Made by a program: the position numbers and the translations under genes. This document shows positions 1-41,737 of a stretch of DNA of 64,000 nt, piece by piece (position 1 is the stretch's first letter; every line of letters begins with the position of its first letter). The stretch is taken from NCBI GenBank assembly GCA_035548435.1, contig DASZSY010000003.1:5311-69310 (forward strand), given 5' to 3'. The DNA is from Candidatus Nanoarchaeia archaeon. Its GTDB lineage: Archaea; Nanobdellota; Nanobdellia; Pacearchaeales; GW2011-AR1. A model generated the notes under the pieces. That model ran no database searches and was not told where the DNA came from. It saw nothing but the letters and a program-made list of their open reading frames with translations.

Positions 1-709
1 AAATTGTATTTCTATCTATTGTAAAAAATTGTCCCAAAATATCAATACCATCAACATGATTATTAGTTATAGTATTGTTTCTAATAATAATTCCGTTTGA
101 ATAAGTATTGTCTGTTGAATATCCCGATGCAATGTTTATACCTGCCTGCGAGCAATTAGATAAAAAGTTATTTTCAATTATTACTCTTGCAGTATTTCTT
201 ACATATATGCAACTAACTGAGTCTCCATATCCCACTGCATCCTTTACAGTAGAATTGGCAAAAACAAAACCAGTACCTCCAGGTCCGCTTGTTGCGGCAT
301 AAGCGATAACTCCGGGTACTCCTGTTCCTACCAAAGAAGAGTTGGCTGAGAAATTAGATATTTCAAAGAAATTTATAGTGACATTCGAGACTCTAGAATC
401 TATAGAAATACTACTACCTAAAAGAACCGGGCGGGTAGATGAGTTTGAAGTAAGCAAAGTATTGTTTTTAGAAATTGAAAGATTTTGAGAGTAAGTTCCA
501 TTTTCAACAACAACCGTATCTCCATTCAATATGTTGTTTAAAGCATATTGGATATCTCTCCAAGGAGCATTTAGACTACCTGCACTAGAATTAGAGCCCC
601 AAGTAGCTACATAATAGGTGTTTGCTTCAACAGAGTAAGTCAAAAAAATGCATATAAATATCAGAAAAAACAAAGAAGAGTACCTCTTACTAAAAGTTAA
701 TCCGAACAT
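1..709 (-). CDS. Secreted right-handed parallel beta-helix repeat protein, partial (C-terminus beyond window edge)
   Basis: Hand-translated minus frame from ATG at 707-709 is open to position 1. It starts MFGLTFSKRYSSLFFLIFICIFLTYSVEA (signal peptide), then NTYYVATWGSNSSAGSLNAPWRDIQYALNNILNGDTVVVENGTY, the typical N-terminus of pectate-lyase-fold/DUF1565 proteins. PbH1-like repeats follow (IIIRNNTITNNHVDGIDI). About 10 N-x-S/T sequons are present. It is not in the ORF track because it has no in-window stop. Confidence 0.5.
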   Translation of the reverse strand, partial: MFGLTFSKRYSSLFFLIFICIFLTYSVEANTYYVATWGSNSSAGSLNAPWRDIQYALNNILNGDTVVVENGTYSQNLSISKNNTLLTSNSSTRPVLLGSSISIDSRVSNVTINFFEISNFSANSSLVGTGVPGVIAYAATSGPGGTGFVFANSTVKDAVGYGDSVSCIYVRNTARVIIENNFLSNCSQAGINIASGYSTDNTYSNGIIIRNNTITNNHVDGIDILGQFFTIDRNTI

Positions 710-811
710 AAAAAAGATAACTAATATTCAGTTAAATACTTAACGAATAATTTATCAACCTTTCTAATAGACAACCACAACTTTATTAACGCTATTTAGA
801 CTGATTTTTGT

Positions 812-2179
812 ATGTTAGAAAAGCTTTCAGAAGCATTGAAAAAAACAACAGACAAGATAGCAAATGCTGTATTTCTTGACAAAAACCTTGTAGACCAGAT
901 AGTGAAAGATCTCCAGCGCGCCCTAATAGAAGCAGACGTTAATGTTGCCCTTGTTTTAGAAATAACCAAGAAAATAAAGCAAACTGCACTTGACGAGAGA
1001 ATTTCAGGACTTGAAAAAAAAGAACATATAATCAAGCTTCTTCATGATGAACTTCTTAAACTTCTTGGGGAGAAGAAAGAACTAAAGCTTTCTCCAAAAA
1101 GAAATGTCTTTATGATGCTTGGTTTATATGGACAAGGAAAAACAACAACAATATCAAAACTCGCATTATATTATGCAAAGCGTGGACACAAAGTCTGTGC
1201 AGTTGGACTTGACGTACACAGACCTGCGGCTTCAGAACAGTTAAAACAACTTTGTGATAAATTGAACATTGCTTGCTTTATCCAGCCCGGAGAGAAGGAC
1301 GTAAAAAAGATATGGAAAAAATATGAAACTCAAATTGAGGAATACAATCTTGTTTTAGTTGACACTGCAGGACGTGATGCACTTTCAGATGACTTAATAA
1401 AAGAAATAAAAGAAGTTTCAAAATTCTCAAAACCTACTGAAACAATTTTAGTAATGTCTGCAGATGTAGGACAAACAGCAAAGAAACAAGCTTCAACTTT
1501 CAAAGAAGCAGTAAACATCACGGGAGTAATAATCACTAAAATGGATTCCACTGCAAAAGCGGGTGGTGCTCTAACAGCCTGCAGCGAAGTAAAAGCACCA
1601 GTAGTATTTATTGGAACTGGAGAAACTCCTGCCGATCTTGAACTTTTCAATCCAGAATCATTCCTTTCTCGTCTTCTTGGAATGGGAGACCTTGCTTCAT
1701 TGATGGAAAAAATACATTCAATAATGGACAAAGATAAAATGTCTGAAGCTCAGAGAAATTTAGAGCAAGGAAAATTAACAATGACTGATTTTATAGGACA
1801 GTTAGATTCAATGTCCTCAATGGGTGGAATGGATAAACTTCTTTCCTACATTCCAGGTCTTGGTAACGCAGCAAGCAAGATTCCGAAAGAAGCATTAGCT
1901 CAGCAAGAAGCAAAAGTCAAACGTTGGAAAAACATTTACAATTCAATGTCAAAAGCAGAGAGAGAAAATCCAGAACTCCTTGAAAAACAAACAGCAAGAA
2001 TGCAGCGTATTGCCAAAGGCAGCGGCACAACAACCACTGAAATTCGTGCATTACTAAAACAATACAAACTTCTTCAGGACATGGTTAAATCACAATCTTC
2101 TCTAAGCAGCTCAGGCCAAATGGACCAAAAAACAATTATGAAAATGGCCAAGAAATTTGGCAGGAAAATGAAATTCTAA
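812..2179 (+). CDS. srp54: Signal recognition particle protein SRP54
   Basis: N domain plus GTPase G domain with P-loop GLYGQGKTTT, DTAGR and TKMD motifs; Met-rich C-terminal M domain. Confidence 0.9.
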   Translation: MLEKLSEALKKTTDKIANAVFLDKNLVDQIVKDLQRALIEADVNVALVLEITKKIKQTALDERISGLEKKEHIIKLLHDELLKLLGEKKELKLSPKRNVFMMLGLYGQGKTTTISKLALYYAKRGHKVCAVGLDVHRPAASEQLKQLCDKLNIACFIQPGEKDVKKIWKKYETQIEEYNLVLVDTAGRDALSDDLIKEIKEVSKFSKPTETILVMSADVGQTAKKQASTFKEAVNITGVIITKMDSTAKAGGALTACSEVKAPVVFIGTGETPADLELFNPESFLSRLLGMGDLASLMEKIHSIMDKDKMSEAQRNLEQGKLTMTDFIGQLDSMSSMGGMDKLLSYIPGLGNAASKIPKEALAQQEAKVKRWKNIYNSMSKAERENPELLEKQTARMQRIAKGSGTTTTEIRALLKQYKLLQDMVKSQSSLSSSGQMDQKTIMKMAKKFGRKMKF

Positions 2180-2181
2180 AT

Positions 2182-2673
2182 ATGGTAGACTGGATTACAG
2201 TAATAATCTCCGTTCTTTCAGCAATTATTGTCACAATTATAGGTGCGATAACTACACCCTATTTTCAACATCGGAGAAATTTAGAATTAATTCGACAAGA
2301 AGCTATTTTTAAAATAAGATTAGATAACTATCATTTTATATCTGAAACTTTAGATAATAGAATTAATCTTTATAATAAAATATTAAGAGACATTTGGAAT
2401 GGTTCTAGCAACATAGAGAAAGAAAACGTAGATTATATTCACAACTCGAATAAAGAATTAGACGAAGATATTTCGAAAAGATTATCTGCTTTCAGCACAT
2501 TCTCCTGGAAAGAATATGCTGCATTGAGTACAAAAGAAACACTTTTACTTATTATGCTCAAAAGTAAAGACAAGAAAGAAAACGTACAAAAAGAACTATT
2601 GAAGTTAGAAAATATAATTCATCGAATTAAATCTAAAATGTTAAAGGAATTGAATATAAATTTTAGAAAATGA
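2182..2673 (+). CDS. Hypothetical protein with N-terminal transmembrane anchor
   Basis: ORF packed between srp54 and bud32 with 4-nt overlaps; hydrophobic N-terminus; no recognisable motif. Confidence 0.3.
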   Translation: MVDWITVIISVLSAIIVTIIGAITTPYFQHRRNLELIRQEAIFKIRLDNYHFISETLDNRINLYNKILRDIWNGSSNIEKENVDYIHNSNKELDEDISKRLSAFSTFSWKEYAALSTKETLLLIMLKSKDKKENVQKELLKLENIIHRIKSKMLKELNINFRK

Positions 2674-3269
2674 CATCTAAAATACTCTTCCAAGGCGCTG
2701 AAGCAACAATAATAAAGCAGAAAAATACAATTCTCAAACAAAGGATACCAAAATTATACAGGCATCCTGAAATAGACAAGAAGCTCATAACCCAAAGAAC
2801 AAGAAAAGAAATAAAATTACTTGAAAAACTACAGGGCGTGATAAAAGTTCCAAGAGTTATTTCTTTTTCTGAAAATATAATTGCTCTTGAAGAAATAAAA
2901 GGCAAAAGACTATCAGAATGTCTTGATAAATTAGCAAATAAATCAAAAATTGCAAAAGAAATTGGCCTTTCTCTAGCAAAAATGCATAATTTAGGAATAA
3001 TTCATGGAGATTTAACAACTTCAAATATGATATACACAGGTAAAGAAATATATTTCATTGACTTTGGACTTGGCTATGAATCTGATAGCATTGAAGACAA
3101 AGCAGTTGACCTTCACGTCTTAAAAGAAGCATTAAATGCAAAACATCCAGCTATTTCACAATCTTTCTTCAAGTCAATTCTTTACTCTTACAAATCAAAA
3201 GATAGCGTTAAAGTTTTAGAAAGATTCGACATAGTAGAAAAACGCGGAAGATACAAAGCACAATATTAA
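2670..3269 (+). CDS. bud32: KEOPS complex kinase Bud32 (RIO-type)
   Basis: QGAEATII, RIPKLYRHPEIDKKL...RTRKE and catalytic HGDLTTSNMIY...FIDFG motifs typical of archaeal Bud32. Confidence 0.8.
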   Translation: MTSKILFQGAEATIIKQKNTILKQRIPKLYRHPEIDKKLITQRTRKEIKLLEKLQGVIKVPRVISFSENIIALEEIKGKRLSECLDKLANKSKIAKEIGLSLAKMHNLGIIHGDLTTSNMIYTGKEIYFIDFGLGYESDSIEDKAVDLHVLKEALNAKHPAISQSFFKSILYSYKSKDSVKVLERFDIVEKRGRYKAQY

Positions 3270-3293
3270 AAACTCAACGAACTTGCATTTGAT

Positions 3294-3602
3294 ATGCTAA
3301 AAAGAATAACAAAATTCAGAGGATTTTCAGTAACAAAAAGAGAAATTCTAGCAGATGTCTTTTTCCTCATAGTTTCATTTTCAATTTCGCTATTGGCAAT
3401 ATATATTTTTGATATCCATTGGAGCTTGTATCCAGGAGAAACCATATTTCCTCCAAGCAAACATGTAGGAATAGAACCCTCAAAGTATTATTTCTTCACA
3501 TTTGCTGGAACCATATTATTCTTCATAATATTAAAATTGATGATGCTTGGAATAAAAGAAGAAGAGAAAGAAATGATTAGTAAAGCACTTAAGAAAAGAT
3601 AG
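3294..3602 (+). CDS. Hypothetical small membrane protein
   Basis: Two predicted TM helices; no motif. Confidence 0.3.
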   Translation: MLKRITKFRGFSVTKREILADVFFLIVSFSISLLAIYIFDIHWSLYPGETIFPPSKHVGIEPSKYYFFTFAGTILFFIILKLMMLGIKEEEKEMISKALKKR

Positions 3603-3657
3603 AACTCACGGTTGGATGACAAAACCTTTTAAACCATCTTTATCCTTGTGTTATCAT

Positions 3658-3730
3658 AGCCCTGTCGTATAGTGGTCAAGTATACGGGCCTTTGGCGCCC
3701 GTGACCCCGGTTCGAATCCGGGCAGGGCTA
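3658..3730 (+). tRNA. tRNA-Gln (anticodon TTG)
   Basis: Cloverleaf folded by hand. Acceptor AGCCCTG/CAGGGCT, with the A1:U72 pair characteristic of archaeal tRNA-Gln. Anticodon stem CGGGC/GCCCG with loop CTTTGGC. T-arm CCCGG-TTCGAAT-CCGGG. Discriminator A. Confidence 0.85.
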
Positions 3731-3763
3731 TTAATATAAAAGCAAATAAATTCTGTATAGAAT

Positions 3764-4588
3764 ATGATAAAAAAGCACTTCAAAAAACAAGAAATATCTA
3801 TAAAAAAGCAATTTGAAAGTAGAAGAAAACTACTTATCCCATTCATAGAGAAATATAATGCCCCAGTAATTGTCCATTCAATTCATGATAAGAAAATATT
3901 CCATAAAATAATTACAGAAGGAAAAATAAAAATTCCTAGCAATCACAACACTCCCAGAAAAACACCATATATTGAGCAATTTTTAGATATTGATAATTGT
4001 ATATACTATAGTTTAGGATTTGTTTACTTTTCTTCATATGGGTGGAAATACAGCCTAATATTCAACCTAGACCAATTAAAAGAAATAGAGTATTACAACA
4101 ATTCTCTTAATTTTAAAGCAGCAAGAGCAGTTGTTGACTACTGGCACGATAATGATAAGCAATATTTAGACAAATTAGAAAAAGAAAATGAAACAACAAA
4201 GGCCGTTTTCAACAGATACTATAATGAACCATTTAACGGCAAGCTTAGATGCATCCTAGAATTTTGGAAAATAGAAAAAGAACTATTTGATTATATTAAC
4301 AATTATCCTCACAAAGATAAGATTATGACTTTGATTAAAGATACTAATAAGAAATTCTTTATAGAATATCCAAAATCAAAAGAAGATATTTTAGAAAATT
4401 ACACAAAAGAAAAAGCTCCAGAGATGATAAGTAGAAAAGATAACGATTTAACAAAAAACCCTTCTTTTATCGGATTTCACATTCATGGCAAGATAAGTAA
4501 AGACACCTTAAAGATATTGAAAGATAAATATAACGATAAAATAATATTTGACGGAAAAAGAATAAAAAAGATATCTGAAATAAAATGA
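3764..4588 (+). CDS. Hypothetical Lys-rich protein
   Basis: 274-aa ORF, no recognised motif. Confidence 0.3.
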   Translation: MIKKHFKKQEISIKKQFESRRKLLIPFIEKYNAPVIVHSIHDKKIFHKIITEGKIKIPSNHNTPRKTPYIEQFLDIDNCIYYSLGFVYFSSYGWKYSLIFNLDQLKEIEYYNNSLNFKAARAVVDYWHDNDKQYLDKLEKENETTKAVFNRYYNEPFNGKLRCILEFWKIEKELFDYINNYPHKDKIMTLIKDTNKKFFIEYPKSKEDILENYTKEKAPEMISRKDNDLTKNPSFIGFHIHGKISKDTLKILKDKYNDKIIFDGKRIKKISEIK

Positions 4589-4816
4589 AGAAAGCGTATT
4601 CAATAAAAATATACAGCTGCCTAGTATCCTTTCCAATTAACTTTGCTAGGCATACCTGGATAGATATAACTTATTTGGTCCAAACAGCAATACATTTACT
4701 CAAGATATAATAAATAATGCAAAACTGAAAGCTAAATTGCCTTAGAATGCAATTGGTAAGAATTATATTTTAACTTAATTAGGTATTTTTATAAAAGAGA
4801 AATATCTTGATTTATC

Positions 4817-5737
4817 ATGTTTTTGACCCTTCTAGTTATTGTAGTTGGTCTTTGTCTATTCGAAATAATAACTAGCGTTGACAACGCAATAATTAACGCA
4901 GATGTTCTATCCACAATGGATAAGAAAAACAGAAGGTTGTTTCTTATATTTGGAGTTATAGTAAGTGTATTTATTGTTCGTGGACTTCTACCTTGGATAA
5001 TAGTCTGGATAGCCAACCCTCATCTTGGGCCCTGGACTGCTTTAATCTCAAGTTTTAGTGCAGACCCTGCAATAAAAGAATCTGTGGAATCTTCTGCTCC
5101 AATGCTTCTAATAGCCGGAGGAGTATATTTGATATTTTTGTTTATGCATTGGTGGTTTGTTGAACCAAAAACCTATGGACTTGTTGGAGAAAGATTTGTT
5201 CATAGACAAGCAATTTGGTTCTATTCAGTAGTTTCATTAATATTAGCAATAATAGTCTGGCTTGCAGTAAAAATTCACCCTTGGATGGCATTTAGTGCAG
5301 TTATAGGTTCAACCGCTTTCTTTATTACCCATGGTTTCAAAGTAAACGCAGAAGAAAAAGAAAAAGACCTTAAGAAAAAACACCTATCGGATATGAGTAA
5401 AATTGCCTTCCTTCTTGTAATTGACTCAACATTTTCAATAGACAGCGTTCTAGGAGCATTTGCATTTACATTATCAGTTCCACTAATCTTCCTAGGTAAT
5501 GGAATTGGGGCAATAGTAGTTCAACAATTGACTGTTAGAGGAGTTGACAAAATAAAACAATATGTTTATTTGAAAAACGGAGCAATGTATTCTATACTAT
5601 TCTTAGGTTTAATTATGACTTTTGACTCTTTTGGAGTACATATTCCAGAATGGTTGTCTCCAATAGTTACAATCACAGTTGTAGGTTATTTCTTTTACAA
5701 ATCGCATAAAGCAAAAATTGAAAATATATTAGATTAA
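4817..5737 (+). CDS. TerC-superfamily / DUF475-like integral membrane protein
   Basis: About 8 TM helices; N-terminal FEIITSVDNAIINADVL resembles the conserved SVDNA element of TerC/DUF475 proteins. Confidence 0.45.
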   Translation: MFLTLLVIVVGLCLFEIITSVDNAIINADVLSTMDKKNRRLFLIFGVIVSVFIVRGLLPWIIVWIANPHLGPWTALISSFSADPAIKESVESSAPMLLIAGGVYLIFLFMHWWFVEPKTYGLVGERFVHRQAIWFYSVVSLILAIIVWLAVKIHPWMAFSAVIGSTAFFITHGFKVNAEEKEKDLKKKHLSDMSKIAFLLVIDSTFSIDSVLGAFAFTLSVPLIFLGNGIGAIVVQQLTVRGVDKIKQYVYLKNGAMYSILFLGLIMTFDSFGVHIPEWLSPIVTITVVGYFFYKSHKAKIENILD

Positions 5738-5883
5738 ATCTTTATTCCAGAATCTTTAGGATTTTTATCATGCTGATCCATTCTTCCAGCTATTAAACAA
5801 TCAAAGCAAGGACCTATTGTTCCATCTGCTTTCATTATTCTTCTTTTACCTTGACATTTTGGACAATCTGGTTGTTCTGCCAT
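5734..5883 (-). CDS. Small zinc-ribbon protein (49 aa), not in ORF track
   Basis: Hand translation gives MAEQPDCPKCQGKRRIMKADGTIGPCFDCLIAGRMDQHDKNPKDSGIKI with CPKC...CFDC. Its stop overlaps the stop of the convergent 4817..5737 gene. Confidence 0.4.
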   Translation of the reverse strand: MAEQPDCPKCQGKRRIMKADGTIGPCFDCLIAGRMDQHDKNPKDSGIKI

Positions 5884-5930
5884 ATAAAACACAGAAAAAT
5901 GAGACTTATAAAATTTTGTGAGATGTTGTT

Positions 5931-6248
5931 TTACTTGATATTTTGCCTAGATTCTTCAAAATCTGAATAATTTTGTAATATTTCTTCATCTTTCTTTATA
6001 TCTCTTAAAGCAACAAGATTTTCATTAAGCAAACCAATGTTTGGATTAGTTGAATGATTACAATACCTTATATCATCATGAGCTAAGTGCCATTTTCCAA
6101 GTTTTTTATCAAAGTATCCATAGTGTTTTATAATTTCCTTTTCACTTTCATTTAACTCATTGAACTGCTTTTCAGTCAATAATAAATCAAGTTTAATATT
6201 TGGACAATATATTTTCGTTCCTTTCTTTATATTTTCAGAAGCAAACAA
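5931..6248 (-). CDS. Small SET-domain-like protein
   Basis: FASENIKKGTKIY (SET N-region), RYCNHSTNPNI (NHSxxPN core) and EEILQNY (GEEL.Y-like) in 105 aa. Comparable to minimal viral/archaeal SET proteins. Confidence 0.4.
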   Translation of the reverse strand: MFASENIKKGTKIYCPNIKLDLLLTEKQFNELNESEKEIIKHYGYFDKKLGKWHLAHDDIRYCNHSTNPNIGLLNENLVALRDIKKDEEILQNYSDFEESRQNIK

Positions 6249-6301
6249 TCCAATTCCATGAACTTTACTTTTATCTAAATGTATTTGTATAAAAAAAATA
6301 T

Positions 6302-6592
6302 TTATGCTACTTTAGCCAATTGCTCTCTGTCTTGAAGTAGTGCAATTAAAGTACCTTCCATTCCCGATATGCTTCTCCAAGCTGCTTCCATCTCTTCAGG
6401 TTCTGCTTTCTTACCAGTTTTTCTATAATTGTTAATAAATTTTCTCAATCCAGATCCCTCACCCATATACATAGTATCGAATCCATCTCTGCTTAATTCA
6501 TCCAAATCTCCTCTGATTACATGATATTCTTTAGATAAAAATTGATAAAGAAAATCAAGAACAGCAAAGTCACGTATATTTTGATAATCCAT
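6302..6592 (-). CDS. Hypothetical protein, co-oriented with ribosomal protein genes
   Basis: 96-aa ORF upstream of S3Ae and L44e; family not recognised. Confidence 0.3.
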   Translation of the reverse strand: MDYQNIRDFAVLDFLYQFLSKEYHVIRGDLDELSRDGFDTMYMGEGSGLRKFINNYRKTGKKAEPEEMEAAWRSISGMEGTLIALLQDREQLAKVA

Positions 6593-6611
6593 TTTATTTC
6601 TAATTAAAAAT

Positions 6612-7169
6612 TTACTTAAGAAGTTGTGCTGGAGCCTTCACAGATTCAAGAACTCTTATTTCACAGAATGCTAAAGGGTATATCTTCTTTAGTTTTAGTG
6701 AAAGTTCTTTCTGAAGCTTGTTTGTCATCATATCTGAGAATATTTCTTGCAAAGTTCTTATTCTTACATATCCTTGTAAAAATTCTCTTGCTGTGTCTCT
6801 TAGAGAAGCTCTAACAGTTCTTGAAACTCTGTTTCTTGTTATCATAAATGGTTTTACTATAACTGTTCCATCCTTTGAATCAGTTGAGAATGAATCTTCA
6901 ACGTAATCTGTTCCTTTTCTCATGCTTCTTCTTATGAAAGAGCCTGCAAGAGCCATTCTTGATGGAACTCCATTTAGCTTATCTCCTTCTTTCTTTAAGT
7001 TCAATGTAACTTCGAAACTCTTTCCCCTTAGAGATCTTGTCATATCAAGTTTGATTGTTTTACCATCAAACTCTTCTAAATCAGTTCCATAAACATGTAG
7101 CTTTGCAGAAGTTATAGGAGCATTAACCTCAAAAAATCCTTTCTTTATTCCTTTCTTTGCTGTTGCCAT
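6612..7169 (-). CDS. rps3ae: 30S ribosomal protein S3Ae
   Basis: FEVNAPI...GKSFEVTLNL...KIYPL...IRVLE pattern matches archaeal S3Ae. Confidence 0.75.
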   Translation of the reverse strand: MATAKKGIKKGFFEVNAPITSAKLHVYGTDLEEFDGKTIKLDMTRSLRGKSFEVTLNLKKEGDKLNGVPSRMALAGSFIRRSMRKGTDYVEDSFSTDSKDGTVIVKPFMITRNRVSRTVRASLRDTAREFLQGYVRIRTLQEIFSDMMTNKLQKELSLKLKKIYPLAFCEIRVLESVKAPAQLLK

Positions 7170-36310: not shown

Positions 36311-36937
36311 TCACTTTTTTGCCTGCATAAAAACAAGTTTTCTCTTAAGTTTAGGTTGCTTTAAAACCACTTTAAATCTTTTTTCAGACAGCTTCTGGAC
36401 TTTAAATTTTTTAAATAATTTTCTCACTTCCGCCTTGGAAAAGAAATGGCAAATAATCCCGTTCTTTTTCATAATAGTGTTTTTCTCAATAATATTTCCC
36501 CCAGATTTTTCCTGCCTTAAATCTCCTCTCATAAAATCTTCAAATATCAATACTCCTCCCTTGCGAAGAATTCTGTGCATTTCCTTTACAGCTAATTTTC
36601 TATCTTTCTCAAGTAAGTTGTTTAAAACATAATAGCAAAGAATAACATCAAAAGCTTCATCAGCAAATCCTGAATTGATTATATTTCTTTGGACAAATTT
36701 AATATTTCTTTGATTGAATTTTCTTTTGCAGATTAATATTGCTTGTTTTGATGAATCTATGGCAGAAACAAGTTTAGGTCTTTGATTGATTATTTCAGCT
36801 AAATTCTTTCCATTTCCAACCCCAATCTCCAAGATTACCTTATTTTTCAAAACTTTGGGAATAGAGTGCCTTTCCCTTCTCCATTTACTATTATTTTGCT
36901 TATATTCGTAATCCCATATTTCTTCTTGATTTTCCAT
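36311..36937 (-). CDS. Class I SAM-dependent methyltransferase
   Basis: Motif I ILEIGVGNGKN; acidic residue after beta2 (AIDSS). Confidence 0.65.
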   Translation of the reverse strand: MENQEEIWDYEYKQNNSKWRRERHSIPKVLKNKVILEIGVGNGKNLAEIINQRPKLVSAIDSSKQAILICKRKFNQRNIKFVQRNIINSGFADEAFDVILCYYVLNNLLEKDRKLAVKEMHRILRKGGVLIFEDFMRGDLRQEKSGGNIIEKNTIMKKNGIICHFFSKAEVRKLFKKFKVQKLSEKRFKVVLKQPKLKRKLVFMQAKK

Positions 36938-37652: not shown

Positions 37653-39194
37653 ATGGTGTTGAAAGTTCAGGCAAGAGATTATCAGAAAAAAATATATGAA
37701 ACTGCACTATATCATAACACTCTAGTTGTATTGCCGACAGGTCTTGGAAAAACCTTAATTGCTTTAATGCTTTCAGTTAAACGTCTTCAAGAACATCCAG
37801 GTAAGAAAGTACTTCTTGTTGCTCCAACCAAACCTTTAGTTGAACAACATGCTAAAAGCTTCAAAGCAGAAATACCTGAATTATTTGCAGATGTACAAGT
37901 ATTAACTGGAGAATCCAACGCAACCCTTAGAGCTAAAACCTGGAACACTGCAGATATTATAATTGCAACTCCTCAAAGTATTGCCAATGATTTAGAAAAG
38001 TATCTTTATACCCTAGAAGACGTTTGTTTGGTAATAATAGACGAAGCACATAGATGTTTGAAAAATTATGATTACACTAAAATAGTTCAAAGATATAAAA
38101 GTACTTCACCTACACAAAGAATTTTGGGTTTGACAGCTTCTCCAGGTTCAAATATTGATAATGTAAGAGAAATATGCAATCATTTAGATGTTGAAGAAAT
38201 AGAAATAAGAAATAGAGAATCGCTTGATGTTAAACCATATTTACAAGAAAGAGAACACGATAAAATAGAAGTTCCCTTTCCTCCAGAGTTTGAAGAATTA
38301 AGATTCTTCCTTAGAAAAATATATGATATGAAAGTAGATCAACTGCGAGAAAGGTCTCTTCTTTTCGGACCTGCAAACAAAATTACTTTGCTTAAGCTTC
38401 AGCAGCGTTTGGCGATGCAAGCTTCTCAAAAAAATGGAAATGCGATGTATGGAATGTCTTTAACTGCCCAAGCAATAAAAATAAGTCATGCAGTTGAATT
38501 ACTAGAAACCCAAACTCTCTCAGGACTAAAAGCATACCTTGATGGATTATTAGAGCAAGCAAATAATAAACAAACAAAGGCTGCAGAAAATTTAGTAAAA
38601 ATGCCTGAATTCAATGGAGCTTATATTTCTGTGAATAATTTATTAGCTCAAAAAAAAGAACATCCTAAAATAACTGCCATAGTCCAGCTTGTAAAAGAAA
38701 CCTTAAAGGAAAAAGCAAATGGAAAAATAATTGTGTTCACCCAGTTTAGAGAATCTGCTTCTCAAATATCTCTGCAATTAAACTCCATAGAGAATGTAAA
38801 AGCAAAAATTTTCATAGGACAAACAAAAAAGAAAGATATGGGAATGTCTCAGAAAGAACAAAAACAAATTTTAGACCAGTTTAGAAGCGGAGATATAAAT
38901 GTTTTATGTGCAACTTCCATAGGAGAAGAGGGCTTAGATATTCCTGAAGTGGATATGGTTGTTTTCTATGAGCCTATTCCCTCGGCAATAAGAAAAATAC
39001 AGCGCGCAGGTCGTACAGCCCGTCTAGCCCCAGGAAAAATAGTGATGCTTATAACAAAAGACACAAAAGACGAAGCAAACAACTATGCTTCAACTGCCCG
39101 TGAAAAAAAGATGTATTCAATAATAGAAAAAGTCAAGCAAGAAATTTCTAAAAAATCTATTTCTTTATCTAGATTTTCTCCCAAGTCTGTCTAA
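37653..39194 (+). CDS. hef: Hef-like SF2 helicase (FANCM/ERCC4-helicase domain)
   Basis: Walker A PTGLGKT, DEAH box IIDEAHRC, motif VI QRAGRTAR; 513 aa with no nuclease domain. Confidence 0.75.
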   Translation: MVLKVQARDYQKKIYETALYHNTLVVLPTGLGKTLIALMLSVKRLQEHPGKKVLLVAPTKPLVEQHAKSFKAEIPELFADVQVLTGESNATLRAKTWNTADIIIATPQSIANDLEKYLYTLEDVCLVIIDEAHRCLKNYDYTKIVQRYKSTSPTQRILGLTASPGSNIDNVREICNHLDVEEIEIRNRESLDVKPYLQEREHDKIEVPFPPEFEELRFFLRKIYDMKVDQLRERSLLFGPANKITLLKLQQRLAMQASQKNGNAMYGMSLTAQAIKISHAVELLETQTLSGLKAYLDGLLEQANNKQTKAAENLVKMPEFNGAYISVNNLLAQKKEHPKITAIVQLVKETLKEKANGKIIVFTQFRESASQISLQLNSIENVKAKIFIGQTKKKDMGMSQKEQKQILDQFRSGDINVLCATSIGEEGLDIPEVDMVVFYEPIPSAIRKIQRAGRTARLAPGKIVMLITKDTKDEANNYASTAREKKMYSIIEKVKQEISKKSISLSRFSPKSV

Positions 39195-40086
39195 GTAGTC
39201 TAGTTGGAGCTTCTCCATATTTATCAGGTCTAAATTGCCAATTCCAAGACTGTGTAAAGACATATTGAAACAATGAAGATAAAGTATGTTTAGGATCTCT
39301 TTTTCCTTTTTCAGCTAAATTTTTCCAAAAATTAACGCTTGCTAAACAAGAAGGCCAAAGATGACTAAGCCAGTGTTCTGAAGTAATCCTATAGTCCTGC
39401 GTTCCATCAACTTCTTTGACAAGCTTAAATTTAGATTTTGCACAATTTTCTAATTGACCTTGTTTAGGATAATAACAACCAAGATTTCCTAAAACGAAAG
39501 CATAATGCATATTATCAGAGTTCCAAGGTAATGAAAGAGGATTTTGTTGTACTACCAAAGGATCTGGAATTCTGTTATAATGTATTGCAGTTGTAACAAA
39601 TCTCTGCCCTCTCCCTAAAAATGAACTAACTCTATCAAATAAATCTACATATATTTTATCTTGTTTACCTTCAGCAGCATCCTGCGGAGTAACAAAGTGT
39701 TCTAAAGAACCATTTGCAATAACTCCATGAAAACTACCAACATGAAAAGGAGTAACATCTCTATAATCTTGTAAGAGTACAACAAGTCCCTTCTTATTGC
39801 ATCTTTTAACTTGTATTGGTGAGATTGTAAGTCCTACTCCAGATATTCTTCTTTCTTTAGCAGCCTCAAGCAAGGTTCCATTCCCGCACCCAATTTCCAA
39901 AATTCTACCTCCCTCTTGCGGAAGATGTAATTCATCTAAAATAAAATTGTGTTGATTTCTCTGTGCTTCTAAATAAGGAGTCAGTGGATTTCCATTGTAA
40001 ATTCCTTCTGTAAAATCTTCTATTCCTTGTCCAACCCACGAATCAATTAAATCATAAAAAGAAACTGCAGTTTTATTTCTACTCAT
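39169..40086 (-). CDS. Class I SAM-dependent methyltransferase (CFA-synthase-like)
   Basis: Motif I ILEIGCGNGTLLE; 305 aa. Confidence 0.55.
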   Translation of the reverse strand: MSRNKTAVSFYDLIDSWVGQGIEDFTEGIYNGNPLTPYLEAQRNQHNFILDELHLPQEGGRILEIGCGNGTLLEAAKERRISGVGLTISPIQVKRCNKKGLVVLLQDYRDVTPFHVGSFHGVIANGSLEHFVTPQDAAEGKQDKIYVDLFDRVSSFLGRGQRFVTTAIHYNRIPDPLVVQQNPLSLPWNSDNMHYAFVLGNLGCYYPKQGQLENCAKSKFKLVKEVDGTQDYRITSEHWLSHLWPSCLASVNFWKNLAEKGKRDPKHTLSSLFQYVFTQSWNWQFRPDKYGEAPTRLLRQTWEKI

Positions 40087-40136
40087 CTCTTTTTTCTAAA
40101 AATAATGTTAATAAATATGATTATACTTAATTTACT

Positions 40137-40772
40137 GTGCCTCTAGACATATTTAGAAAAGCAATAGAAAAAAAGCCAGAAAAAACAAAAATAATTGTTG
40201 ATTTCAGAGAGAAGAACTCTCTTGTTCCCTCAGAACTTGTCAACCTTGATTGTCATATTGATTTCAAGCAATTAGAAGTTGGAGATTACATTTCAGGTCA
40301 ATATATTATAGAAAGAAAAACCATGCAGGATTTGCAAGCATCCCTGATTTCCAAAAGAATATTTTCTCAAATTCAGTCTTTGAAATTGCAAAAAAATCCA
40401 ATTTTAATAATAGAAAATAAAGAAGAATGGAAATTAAATAAAAATGCATTTTATGGGCTTGTATTATTTATAGTAAAAACAAATATTCCTTTAATATTTT
40501 CAAATAATCCTAAAGAAACTGCTAAGTATATCAAATTATTTTCAACTGAAAAAAAGCAAAAAGAATTTTCCTATAGATTCAATAAAAAAGCAGGTTCAAA
40601 AGAAGATATTGCAAAATATGTTTTAGAAGGCTTCCCAGGTATAGGCAGGGCAACTTCAGAGAAATTGCTTAAAAAATTTGGAAACCTGAAAAATATATTT
40701 CTAGCTTCAGAAGAAGAGCTACAAGAAGTTTTAGGTAAAAAAGCTCTTGAATTCAAGAAAATTATAGATTAG
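40137..40772 (+). CDS. xpf: XPF/ERCC4-type nuclease with C-terminal HhH2
   Basis: GDYISGQYIIERKTMQDL (ERK nuclease motif) and EGFPGIGRATSEKLLKKFG (HhH). Confidence 0.75.
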   Translation: MPLDIFRKAIEKKPEKTKIIVDFREKNSLVPSELVNLDCHIDFKQLEVGDYISGQYIIERKTMQDLQASLISKRIFSQIQSLKLQKNPILIIENKEEWKLNKNAFYGLVLFIVKTNIPLIFSNNPKETAKYIKLFSTEKKQKEFSYRFNKKAGSKEDIAKYVLEGFPGIGRATSEKLLKKFGNLKNIFLASEEELQEVLGKKALEFKKIID

Positions 40773-41737
40773 CTAGCAACCTTATCTACATTCTTGTAAA
40801 CTATGCTTGAGATTTTAGACATTACTCTATCTGCCTCAAACTCATCTGCCCCAGTACTCATTATACATAAGATATATGGTTTTACAGGATGATATATAAT
40901 TCCACAATCGTGATAATGATTTATCCCCTCTGAATAAAGATATCCTACTTTATGTGAAACTGGAACTTCTTTCGGAACTCCAGCTGGAAGTTGAGTGTTA
41001 TAATCTGTTTCAGACATTATTGATAAAGCAAGTTCAGAGAAAGTTCTTCTTAAATATGCTGAGTAGTATAATGATCTTAAAATATTACTATACTGTTTAG
41101 GCCCTAGGTAGCTTATATGGTCTCCATCTATAGGTAGACCCATTGCAAGTCTTGCTTCAAGAATATCTTCTGTAGTTAAAAAGTTGGTTTGAAGAACTCT
41201 TAAAGCAGTATTATCAGATTCCTTAATTAAATATTCCAGCAATTCTTTTATTGTTAAAGTGTATCCTGCTCCTTTCTGAGCTAAAGTCCCAGACATAAAG
41301 TTTAGGTCATCCTGTGTTAAGGTGACTTTTTGCTCTAAACTTAATTCTCCTTTTTCAACTCTTTTAAGAATTGCAACCATTACTGGTACTTTCAATAAAC
41401 TAGCTGAAATGAATTCTTCTTTTTCATTTAGTCCAATCCATGCCCCTGTCTTCAAATCCTCAAAATATAGCCCATACTCTCCTTGCAAGTTTGAATTATT
41501 CATAAATTCAATTAAATCAGTTCTCATATCTTGGAATCCAACAGAATATTGATTTTGTACCTCAAGAAAATCCTCTGTTTCCATCCAAGCAATATCTGGA
41601 GAAATATGTGCAAACTTAGGAGTATACTTCACAGTATAATAATGAGAAATATAAAAGTTTAGCCCAATGGAAATTAAGAGTGAAACAAAGACTGCTGCAA
41701 GTAGTTTGTTATTCTTTAAAGTCTCTTTAATTTGCAT
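40769..41737 (-). CDS. Class A beta-lactamase-like serine hydrolase (membrane-anchored)
   Basis: SxxK (ASLLK), SDN (ESDNTA) and K[ST]G-like (HKVGY) motifs; N-terminal TM helix. Confidence 0.5.
   Translation of the reverse strand: MQIKETLKNNKLLAAVFVSLLISIGLNFYISHYYTVKYTPKFAHISPDIAWMETEDFLEVQNQYSVGFQDMRTDLIEFMNNSNLQGEYGLYFEDLKTGAWIGLNEKEEFISASLLKVPVMVAILKRVEKGELSLEQKVTLTQDDLNFMSGTLAQKGAGYTLTIKELLEYLIKESDNTALRVLQTNFLTTEDILEARLAMGLPIDGDHISYLGPKQYSNILRSLYYSAYLRRTFSELALSIMSETDYNTQLPAGVPKEVPVSHKVGYLYSEGINHYHDCGIIYHPVKPYILCIMSTGADEFEADRVMSKISSIVYKNVDKVAS

Follow-up and report, generated by a model that had tools for sequence, protein, structure and literature searches.

Hef encoded as separate helicase and nuclease genes in a clade of DPANN archaea

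The Hef locus of the window

The window analyzed here is a stretch of 64,000 nucleotides from a contig (DASZSY010000003.1) of a Candidatus Nanoarchaeia archaeon, with a G+C content of ~32%. At positions 37653-40772 it contains the helicase and the nuclease of Hef, a fork-repair enzyme of archaea that is related to eukaryotic FANCM, XPF and MUS81 and resembles their ancestor, as two separate genes on the same strand (Table 1). The gene for a methyltransferase dependent on S-adenosylmethionine (SAM) is located between them on the opposite strand. The helicase, methyltransferase and nuclease open reading frames (ORFs) encode 513, 305 and 211 amino acid residues, respectively. The convergent 3′ ends of the helicase and methyltransferase genes overlap by 26 nucleotides (39169-39194), and the helicase stop codon is 942 nucleotides away from the nuclease start codon. 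These three ORFs had been described in a sequence-only reading of the window, and the ORF list bears out their coordinates, their strands and the overlap. The proteins are 100% identical to those annotated from a metagenome-assembled genome (MAG) of a 'Candidatus Nanoarchaeia archaeon', and each of them is recorded on two contigs.

Table 1. Features of the Hef locus, in window coordinates
Feature	Position	Strand	Basis
Hef helicase half (superfamily 2: Hel1, inserted helical 'thumb', Hel2)	37653..39194	+	Pfam, Hef profile, 1wp9
PIP-box-like motif S-I-S-L-S-R-F (residues 502-508; L505, F508)	39156..39176	+	Clade motif comparison
CMAS-family class I SAM-dependent methyltransferase, antisense to both Hef halves	39169..40086	-	Pfam
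50-bp A/T-rich divergent intergenic region, methyltransferase start to nuclease start	40087..40136	.	Sequence
Hef nuclease half (ERCC4 + HhH2)	40137..40772	+	Pfam, Hef profile, AlphaFold2, phylogeny
N-terminal peptide M-P-L-D-I-F-R-K and Lys-rich spacer (residues 1-17)	40137..40187	+	Clade alignment

By its profile and structure matches, the helicase ORF is a bona fide Hef helicase. Pfam identifies DEAD, RNA_helicase_helical (PF21210) and Helicase_C domains in it and no ERCC4 domain, in agreement with the earlier description of this ORF as lacking a nuclease domain. The NCBIfam model of Hef (NF010337, 781 positions) is covered from position 15 to 513, with a score of 558 bits, and residues 5-487 match the sequence of the Pyrococcus furiosus Hef helicase domain structure (1wp9) with an E value of 9e-119. 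The Walker A motif (P28-T34, 37734-37754) and the DEAH box (D130-H133, 38040-38051) are present, and these two motifs together with motif VI are intact in all 120 helicases of the clade that were compared. The best 120 helicase homologues, from MAGs of Nanoarchaeota, Pacearchaeota and Woesearchaeota, are all 501-561 residues long and without ERCC4.

The nuclease ORF contains ERCC4 (PF02732, 77 bits) and HhH domains according to Pfam, and aligns with positions 565-766 of NF010337 with a score of 155 bits. Together, the two ORFs cover positions 15-513 and 565-766 of the 781 positions in the Hef profile, as expected from the proposal in the sequence-only reading that they are the products of a fission of Hef. 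Neither half reaches the full-length cutoff of the model (558 and 155 versus 610 bits), as the enzyme is not one polypeptide. The catalytic motif GDXnERKX3D of the nuclease is present (G49-D50-Y51...E59-R60-K61...D65, 40281-40331), followed by the HhH2 domain at residues ~155-210 (40599-40769). Residues D22, E25, D50, E59, R60, K61 and D65 are invariant among 80 aligned nuclease homologues, and the ERK triad is kept in 120 of 120 nucleases of the clade. In the AlphaFold2 model, the core of the nuclease has predicted local distance difference test (pLDDT) values of 92-95. The best 120 nuclease homologues are all stand-alone proteins of 210-264 residues, from MAGs of the same three groups as the helicases. 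Judged from the motifs that are kept, both halves are probably competent for catalysis.

The start codon of the nuclease is GTG, directly after an in-frame TAA at 40128-40130. It is supported by the relatives, which begin at the same place with the sequence M-[PSV]-L-D-I-F. The protein ends with ...EFKKIID immediately after HhH2 and has no C-terminal tail. The spacer between the methyltransferase and nuclease start codons holds a TATA-like sequence, ttaataaata, ~25 nucleotides upstream of the GTG, and this spacer may carry a promoter for the nuclease itself, with A/T-rich boxes being weak evidence in a genome of such low G+C content.

The position of the break can be located by comparison with fused relatives, in which the linker between helicase and nuclease is short; a single motif is conserved in it, [KP]-[TS]-L-x-x-[FY], and lies 8-15 residues ahead of the nuclease core. 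The helicases of the split clade end with this linker motif, of the type of a PCNA-interacting protein (PIP) box, with the consensus K-P-K-T-L-x-D-F-K-stop. The pattern [LIMV]xx[FYW] is found in the last 16 residues of 115 of the 120 clade helicases, 88 of which have at most two residues after the aromatic one. The helicase in the window has the tail S-I-S-L-S-R-F-S-P-K-S-V, and its motif is 5 residues from the C terminus. In the helicase-only Hef of Thermoplasma acidophilum (taHef), C-terminal residues 502-508 constitute a PIP box that binds PCNA with a dissociation constant of 1 µM, and both the ΔC7 deletion and the I505R/F508S mutation abolish this binding (PMC4838364). A PIP motif is also located at the helicase/linker boundary of fused Hefs (PMC4838364). 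The fission point in these DPANN archaea appears to lie right after the Hef PIP box, and by analogy to taHef the helicase half may bind PCNA through its predicted C-terminal PIP box. Beyond the split clade, the helicase-only Hefs of about 40 clusters (P0374-P0510) also end at a PIP-like motif (such as ...QKTLGDF, ...QKTLEEF and ...QKNLKEF). An end-point just past the PIP box may recur among archaea and not be confined to Thermoplasma.

The N terminus of the nuclease is specific to the clade, with the consensus M-x-[FL]-x-[DN]-I-F-S-K-K. The [DN]-I-F segment is present in 117 of 120 sequences, and the conservation of residues I5 and F6 is 90% or more, a level like that of the catalytic residues. 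This peptide is followed by a spacer with a median length of 17 residues, 33% of which are Lys or Arg. An N-terminal F-x-[DN]-I-F-S-K peptide was not seen in the fused Hef linkers or in the XPF proteins of TACK archaea that were compared. Residues 1-16 are a low-confidence coil in the AlphaFold model (pLDDT ~62), as might be expected for a linear motif.

Locus L002, assembled independently from a different sequencing run and ~78% identical to the window in DNA sequence, has the identical order of the three genes and the same 26-nucleotide overlap. Evolutionary rates were compared between window positions 37653-40772 and L002 positions 3504-6633, for which the synonymous rate (dS) is ~1.2-1.6 over the three genes. 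The helicases share 95.3% protein identity, with a ratio of nonsynonymous to synonymous rates (dN/dS) of 0.031, the methyltransferases 70% identity (dN/dS 0.15), and the nucleases 63% identity (dN/dS 0.23). All three genes are under purifying selection, and the dN/dS value of the methyltransferase suggests that it is functional in the window. In this lineage, the nonsynonymous rate is ~6 times as high for the nuclease as for the helicase, and the nuclease is constrained as weakly as the least conserved neighboring gene. Across the clade, the ratio of nuclease to helicase distances is 1.34 for split pairs and 1.15 for fused pairs. These values indicate a modest relaxation of the nuclease after its uncoupling from the helicase. 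A recombination tract, considered as the source of the 95% versus 63% identity of the two halves, was ruled out, as the helicase DNA identity is only ~82%, with dS ~1.4, and the difference is in dN.

Distribution of the split and the contents of the gap

In a scan of one genome per species, 80 loci were found and classified by hidden Markov model (HMM) searches of their ORFs. Hef is split in 33 of these loci and fused in 39, and the remaining 8 have no nuclease in view. None of the loci L007-L047, with helicase identity to the window of ~44% or more, is fused, and their nuclease ORF is either separate and downstream on the same strand or not in view. Every one of the loci L048-L086, with helicase identity of 39-45%, has one fused ORF. 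The fused group includes other Woesearchaeota and Nanoarchaeia MAGs, contigs labeled as Methanosarcinales, and an Archaeoglobaceae. The nuclease is downstream of the helicase and on the same strand in all 33 split loci, and all five loci labeled as Pacearchaeota are in the split group. In an exhaustive search of the representatives of 50%-identity clusters, 94 of the best 150 are fused and 56 are without ERCC4.

The split loci have a single origin in the helicase tree (neighbor-joining), where they form one clan with a bootstrap value of 1.0. The fission is therefore old and shared by the whole DPANN clade, which is probably a Pacearchaeota-like lineage. The idea of a fission peculiar to this genome did not survive the inspection of related genomes for fused and split states, as the split state is common to all 33 related species-level loci with both genes in view. 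Several third-party annotation (TPA) labels of 'Methanosarcinales' interleave with DPANN sequences in this tree. In addition, loci L008, L019 and L076 were deposited as 'Saccharibacteria bacterium', 'bacterium' and 'Alphaproteobacteria bacterium', respectively, despite their archaeal Hef locus, and these contigs are probably mis-binned or mislabeled.

The nuclease gene is absent from the locus in two close relatives, with helicases 71-75% identical to that in the window, and in L043 and L047. In the P0123 contig, L088 (5001-7717), L043 and L047, the helicase is directly followed by a gene for a beta-lactamase-like protein or an M16 peptidase, or there is no nuclease within 6.7-7.9 kb.

Inteins (Intein_splicing and LAGLIDADG) were observed in the Hef genes of related lineages, at the catalytic motifs of the helicase and once in the nuclease domain. 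They are inserted at the DEAH box in P0361, P0362, P0367, P0388 and P0396 (HMM positions ~127-132), near motif VI in P0376, and inside ERCC4 in P0365; P0367 has two inserts.

The gaps between the two halves in the split loci of the species genomes are of two sizes, with 16 loci having at most 80 nucleotides and 17 having 247-5286 nucleotides. In the short gaps, the genes are coupled by overlapping codons (TAATG or TGATG, ATGA), by a 17-nucleotide overlap, or with a spacing of +1 or +2. In L001, for example, the helicase and nuclease genes overlap by one nucleotide (TAATG) and there is no insert. The longer gaps have heterogeneous contents, including an IMPDH-family enzyme, C25 peptidases, an amidohydrolase, a nucleotidyltransferase, a bPH protein, a cytidylate-kinase-like protein and 25 singleton ORFs. 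An ORF for a 102-residue membrane protein is located between the halves in L003/L004, and one of 122 residues in L087. In L038 (6278-10442), the genes between helicase and nuclease are those for TctA, an Obg-like GTPase and diphthamide synthase, which are usual flanking genes of the locus, and this indicates a local rearrangement and not an insertion of foreign DNA.

The window, L002, L005 and L006/L014 (L006 = L014) are the only loci in which the methyltransferase is located between the Hef halves. The methyltransferase matches the Pfam CMAS family (PF02353, 44.9 bits versus a cutoff of 27) and models of class I SAM-dependent methyltransferases, and its score with the NCBIfam equivalogs of cyclopropane synthase (41.5) is far below their cutoff of 400. 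There are only ~6 close homologues. More distant ones, with 42-50% identity, are widespread, including one from a bacterium, and a homologue with 61% identity is located in an unrelated gene context. Remnants of the methyltransferase were sought in relatives for dating the insertion, and none was found beyond the window, L002, L005 and L006/L014. It seems to be an ordinary CMAS-family enzyme with no evident functional link to Hef, and its presence here looks incidental.

The methyltransferase gene of L005 (1176-2111) is broken by an in-frame stop codon. A single tblastn frame spans residues 1-305, and the ORFs are 196-202 and 72-78 residues long. Either the gene is decaying or the stop codon is an error of sequencing. 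The gap in L006 (= L014) contains genes for VapB, a PIN-domain protein and the methyltransferase as well as two small ORFs. The VapB/PIN (VapC-like) toxin-antitoxin pair is located between the Hef helicase and the methyltransferase (L006 6796-7376, = L014 3352-3932).

In relatives, the conserved gene order of the region is a PRC-barrel gene, a 208-residue membrane protein, the helicase, the nuclease, an M16 peptidase, a GTPase and an aminoacyl-tRNA synthetase. Two genes upstream of the helicase, the window encodes a second, unrelated class I methyltransferase (Methyltransf_11, 208 residues; 36311-36937, - strand), which is kept in L002 under weak constraint (61% identity, dN/dS 0.23). A Beta-lactamase2-family gene (322 residues; 40769-41737, - strand) is convergent with the nuclease gene, with an overlap of 4 nucleotides at the stop codon of the latter. 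This gene is present in L002 and adjoins the helicase in the P0123 contig, and other relatives have a gene for a LigT-like 2′-5′ RNA ligase instead. Rfam and tRNA scans of the window found just two tRNAs, both away from the Hef locus.

Origin of the two-gene Hef

We conclude from these comparisons that the split most likely arose by in-situ fission of Hef, because the two ORFs together span the Hef profile, the split nucleases are closer to fused Hefs than to TACK XPFs (see below), the nuclease co-diverges with the helicase, and it is located where the nuclease domain of Hef would be. We consider it highly probable that a single such event in the DPANN clade converted a single-chain Hef to a two-gene Hef, and that the methyltransferase was inserted later. 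The ancestral Hef would have been broken once, in the short linker between helicase and nuclease and right after the PIP box. The first product would be a helicase-only Hef with a C-terminal PIP-like peptide, in the same architecture as taHef. The second would be a stand-alone ERCC4 and HhH2 nuclease that gained its own start codon, the N-terminal F-x-[DN]-I-F-S-K peptide and the Lys-rich spacer. The ancestral split state would be a translationally coupled pair of genes, with overlapping or abutting stop and start codons. Ordinary erosion of gene order would then have placed unrelated genes between the halves in roughly every second lineage, and the nuclease would have disappeared from some of the loci.

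The opposite polarity, with the split state being ancestral and single-chain Hef produced by a fusion, is the most probable of the alternatives and is itself improbable. Unrooted trees give no polarity, Hefs that consist of the helicase only and stop at the PIP box are common among the metagenomic representatives, and the XPF proteins of TACK archaea consist of the nuclease only. However, fused Hef is found across the Euryarchaeota and in other DPANN lineages. When the helicase tree is rooted on the Archaeoglobaceae, the split loci are a single derived clan inside the fused DPANN sequences. The N-terminal peptide of the nuclease, moreover, is specific to the clade.

Slightly more improbable still is that the helicase lost its nuclease domain and that an unrelated short XPF of the TACK type was then acquired downstream. 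The best match of the window nuclease among solved structures, by pairwise score, is the XPF of Aeropyrum pernix (86 bits, compared to 68 and 24.5 bits for the Hef nuclease and HhH2 fragments). The margin of the Hef score over the Xpf score is intermediate for the split nucleases (41-73 bits), between those of fused domains (100-131 bits) and A. pernix XPF (14 bits). With this XPF as the single outgroup, the window nuclease is about equally distant from it and from the fused domains (1.46 and 1.48), and A. pernix joined the split clade in 21-23% of bootstrap trees.

As the origin of the nuclease was ambiguous with this one outgroup, more XPF proteins of the TACK type were collected, which resolved the ambiguity. 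A mixed XPF alignment was unusable for the metagenome scan, having no conserved 7-10-mer, and 21 crenarchaeal-type XPF loci were gathered with the single A. pernix sequence. The recovered XPFs are stand-alone proteins that begin directly with the nuclease core, and no helicase is encoded within 3 kb of them. Their HhH2 domain is followed by a tail of 25-35 residues with a [KR]-[ST]-[LI]-x-[DE]-[YF] PIP motif, whereas the split nucleases lack such a tail. The last C-terminal residues of Sulfolobus XPF are known to bind PCNA (PMC2836553). The XPF tails in L089-L107 ([KR]-[ST]-[LI]-x-[DE]-[YF]-[LFY]) resemble the PIP box of the Hef linker ([KP]-[TS]-L-x-D-F), but the two motifs flank the nuclease module on opposite sides.

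A tree was calculated for 34 split, 37 fused and 18 TACK nucleases, in which the three groups are separate clans, with support values of 0.997, 0.5 and 0.96, respectively. The mean distance between split and fused nucleases is 1.31, that between split and TACK nucleases is 1.56, and the TACK proteins are nearly equidistant from both groups (1.50 from the fused). This is the pattern expected for a lineage derived from Hef with a somewhat raised rate. The distances of helicase and nuclease are correlated as tightly in split pairs (r = 0.75) as in fused proteins (r = 0.77). Moreover, the nuclease gene comes directly after the 3′ end of the helicase gene and in the same orientation, many species having overlaps of the coupling type, and the window nuclease has a score of only 98.6 bits with the Xpf model (NF040956), far under its cutoff of 300. 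The split nuclease is, on these sequence comparisons, not a member of the crenarchaeal XPF family. An unrelated crenarchaeal-type short XPF had been named beforehand as the alternative to a fission, and it fails on three counts, as the nuclease is nearer to fused Hef, has no PIP tail and co-diverges with the helicase.

The methyltransferase could itself have broken an intact Hef in the window genome, and in the window and L002 it does fill the whole gap and overlap the 3′ end of the helicase. This explanation is very improbable and is effectively refuted by L001 and the 16 species loci that are split without an insert, their two genes abutting or overlapping. The split clan is also far older, with helicase identities down to ~44-49%, compared to 59-95% among the loci with the methyltransferase. 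Moreover, remnants of the methyltransferase are missing elsewhere, and both new termini carry motifs conserved across the clade. Since the split is common to 33 loci, 16 of which have abutting or overlapping genes, and the methyltransferase is found in only a few relatives, the fission predates the insertion and is independent of it. The earlier description of a Hef split by an antisense methyltransferase is therefore correct in that this is a true fission of Hef, and not correct in its implication that the methyltransferase was the cause.

An assembly or gene-calling artefact (a frameshift or misjoin), which might be suspected as the source is a MAG, has a negligible probability, because the gene order and overlap are repeated in the independent L002 assembly at 78% DNA identity and the window proteins are each found on two contigs; in addition, the split is present in dozens of independent MAGs and hundreds of protein clusters, and a full-length gene under selection is located between the halves.

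There are several observations that weigh against a single in-situ fission. The PIP-like motif in the window is degenerate (S-L-S-R-F, 5 residues from the end). The A. pernix XPF has a higher score with the Hef model (186) than with the Xpf model (172), and for this reason the two curated profiles were dropped as a discriminator. The split nucleases are not resolved as nested among the fused DPANN Hefs. Their grouping with the sister lineages from the helicase tree has bootstrap values of at most 0.03, and the fused clan has a support of only 0.5. In the helicase tree, the placement of certain fused DPANN lineages as sisters of the split clan also has a support of only 0.5. Congruent sister groups of helicase and nuclease, which appeared in the first best trees, were unsupported (0.5; 0.13-0.22) and disappeared once the TACK sequences were added. 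The trees were calculated by neighbor-joining on saturated distances of ~1.3-1.6, the taxon labels of the MAGs, given by their submitters, are unreliable, and the polarity of fission and not fusion is based mainly on parsimony.

Function of the two halves and relation to known systems

If the fission took place as proposed here, the two halves most likely still act on replication forks that are stalled or branched, in the form of two subunits that would be recruited separately, plausibly via PCNA. The nuclease would be a dimeric ERCC4/HhH2 endonuclease, and its N-terminal peptide could, speculatively, recruit it to PCNA or to the helicase. The trimeric PCNA ring or a direct contact between helicase and nuclease may conceivably replace the covalent linker, through a PIP box at one half's C terminus and the PIP-like F-x-[DN]-I-F peptide, with the Lys-rich spacer as its tether, at the N terminus of the other, and we regard this as possible but rather doubtful. 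In the subclade of the window, co-transcription of the halves is unlikely with the inserted CMAS-family methyltransferase gene being antisense, and the nuclease would therefore use its own promoter. The two domains of Hef have been argued to be unable to engage a fork junction at the same time and to act alternately (PMC5717133), so an enzyme of two subunits would be mechanistically tolerable. Genome streamlining is a plausible setting of the split, because split genes are a known phenomenon in DPANN archaea (PMC6349945).

In reviews, Hef is presented as one chain that combines helicase and nuclease and is found specifically in euryarchaea (PMC7776575). The two-gene Hef shares with the euryarchaeal enzyme (P. 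furiosus, Thermococcus kodakarensis and Haloferax volcanii; NF010337; PDB entries 1wp9, 1j22-1j25 and 1x2i) the helicase core with the inserted helical domain, the ERCC4 motif GDXnERKX3D, the HhH2 domain, and the PIP-type motif at the helicase/linker boundary. In comparison, the window version has two polypeptides and a new N-terminal peptide on the nuclease, and the long disordered linker of Thermococcales Hef is missing from the split proteins.

The closest architecture is that of taHef, the only Hef without a nuclease among those compared by Rohleder et al. 2016 (PMC4838364), which also has a chain of ~510 residues ending in a PIP-type motif, with I505/F508 in taHef corresponding to L505/F508 in the window. 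In contrast to taHef, the cognate nuclease gene persists downstream in most genomes of the split clade, and the motif in the window is more degenerate, its PCNA binding being a prediction. The nuclease half resembles the short XPF of crenarchaea and other TACK archaea (Sulfolobus solfataricus; A. pernix, 2bgw; NF040956), which is also a stand-alone ERCC4 and HhH2 protein of ~210-250 residues with a predicted homodimeric nuclease fold. Unlike the split nuclease, TACK XPF has a C-terminal PIP tail, no N-terminal peptide and no Hef helicase as its neighbor. The two-gene Hef may be described as a taHef-like helicase together with a retained and modified nuclease, and is strictly outside the single-chain Hef equivalog.

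Other multidomain proteins of information processing are also encoded by two genes in DPANN archaea, with lineage-specific splits (reverse gyrase, AlaRS, DNA polymerase I and Dph1/2, among others; PMC6349945). Unlike in those cases, the Hef halves mostly remain neighbors in their original order, and the protein is broken at a motif for protein interaction. No description of a split Hef in DPANN archaea was found in the literature, and Hef is not among the published lists of their split genes; this coverage is incomplete and the absence is not proof. The helicase and nuclease are also on separate polypeptides in eukaryotic FANCM and XPF/MUS81. FANCM uses a terminal (N-terminal) PIP box (PMC4838364). 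However, FANCM retains an inactive nuclease domain and has FAAP24 as its partner, and the DPANN split is not an orthologous event.

The split Hef is tidy, clade-wide and mechanistically suggestive, but the enzyme itself is well known, the variation is one of architecture, and split genes had already been recognized in DPANN archaea. The two conserved genes, broken exactly after what is predicted to be a PCNA-binding motif, suggest that the helicase and nuclease activities of Hef can be uncoupled in vivo. As automatic pipelines annotate the halves as 'DEAD/DEAH box helicase' and 'ERCC4 domain-containing protein', surveys of DNA repair in DPANN archaea will miss Hef. The loci provide a natural series of Hef states, from fused to abutting, to separated, to those with the nuclease absent from the locus, and offer a testable route to helicase-only (Thermoplasma, FANCM-like) and nuclease-only (XPF-like) forms. 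If the two halves are indeed reassembled on the clamp, this clade would be a natural experiment in the separation of helicase and nuclease in the Hef/FANCM/XPF family, and a possible model for the origin of nuclease-only XPF and helicase-only Hef/FANCM-like proteins.

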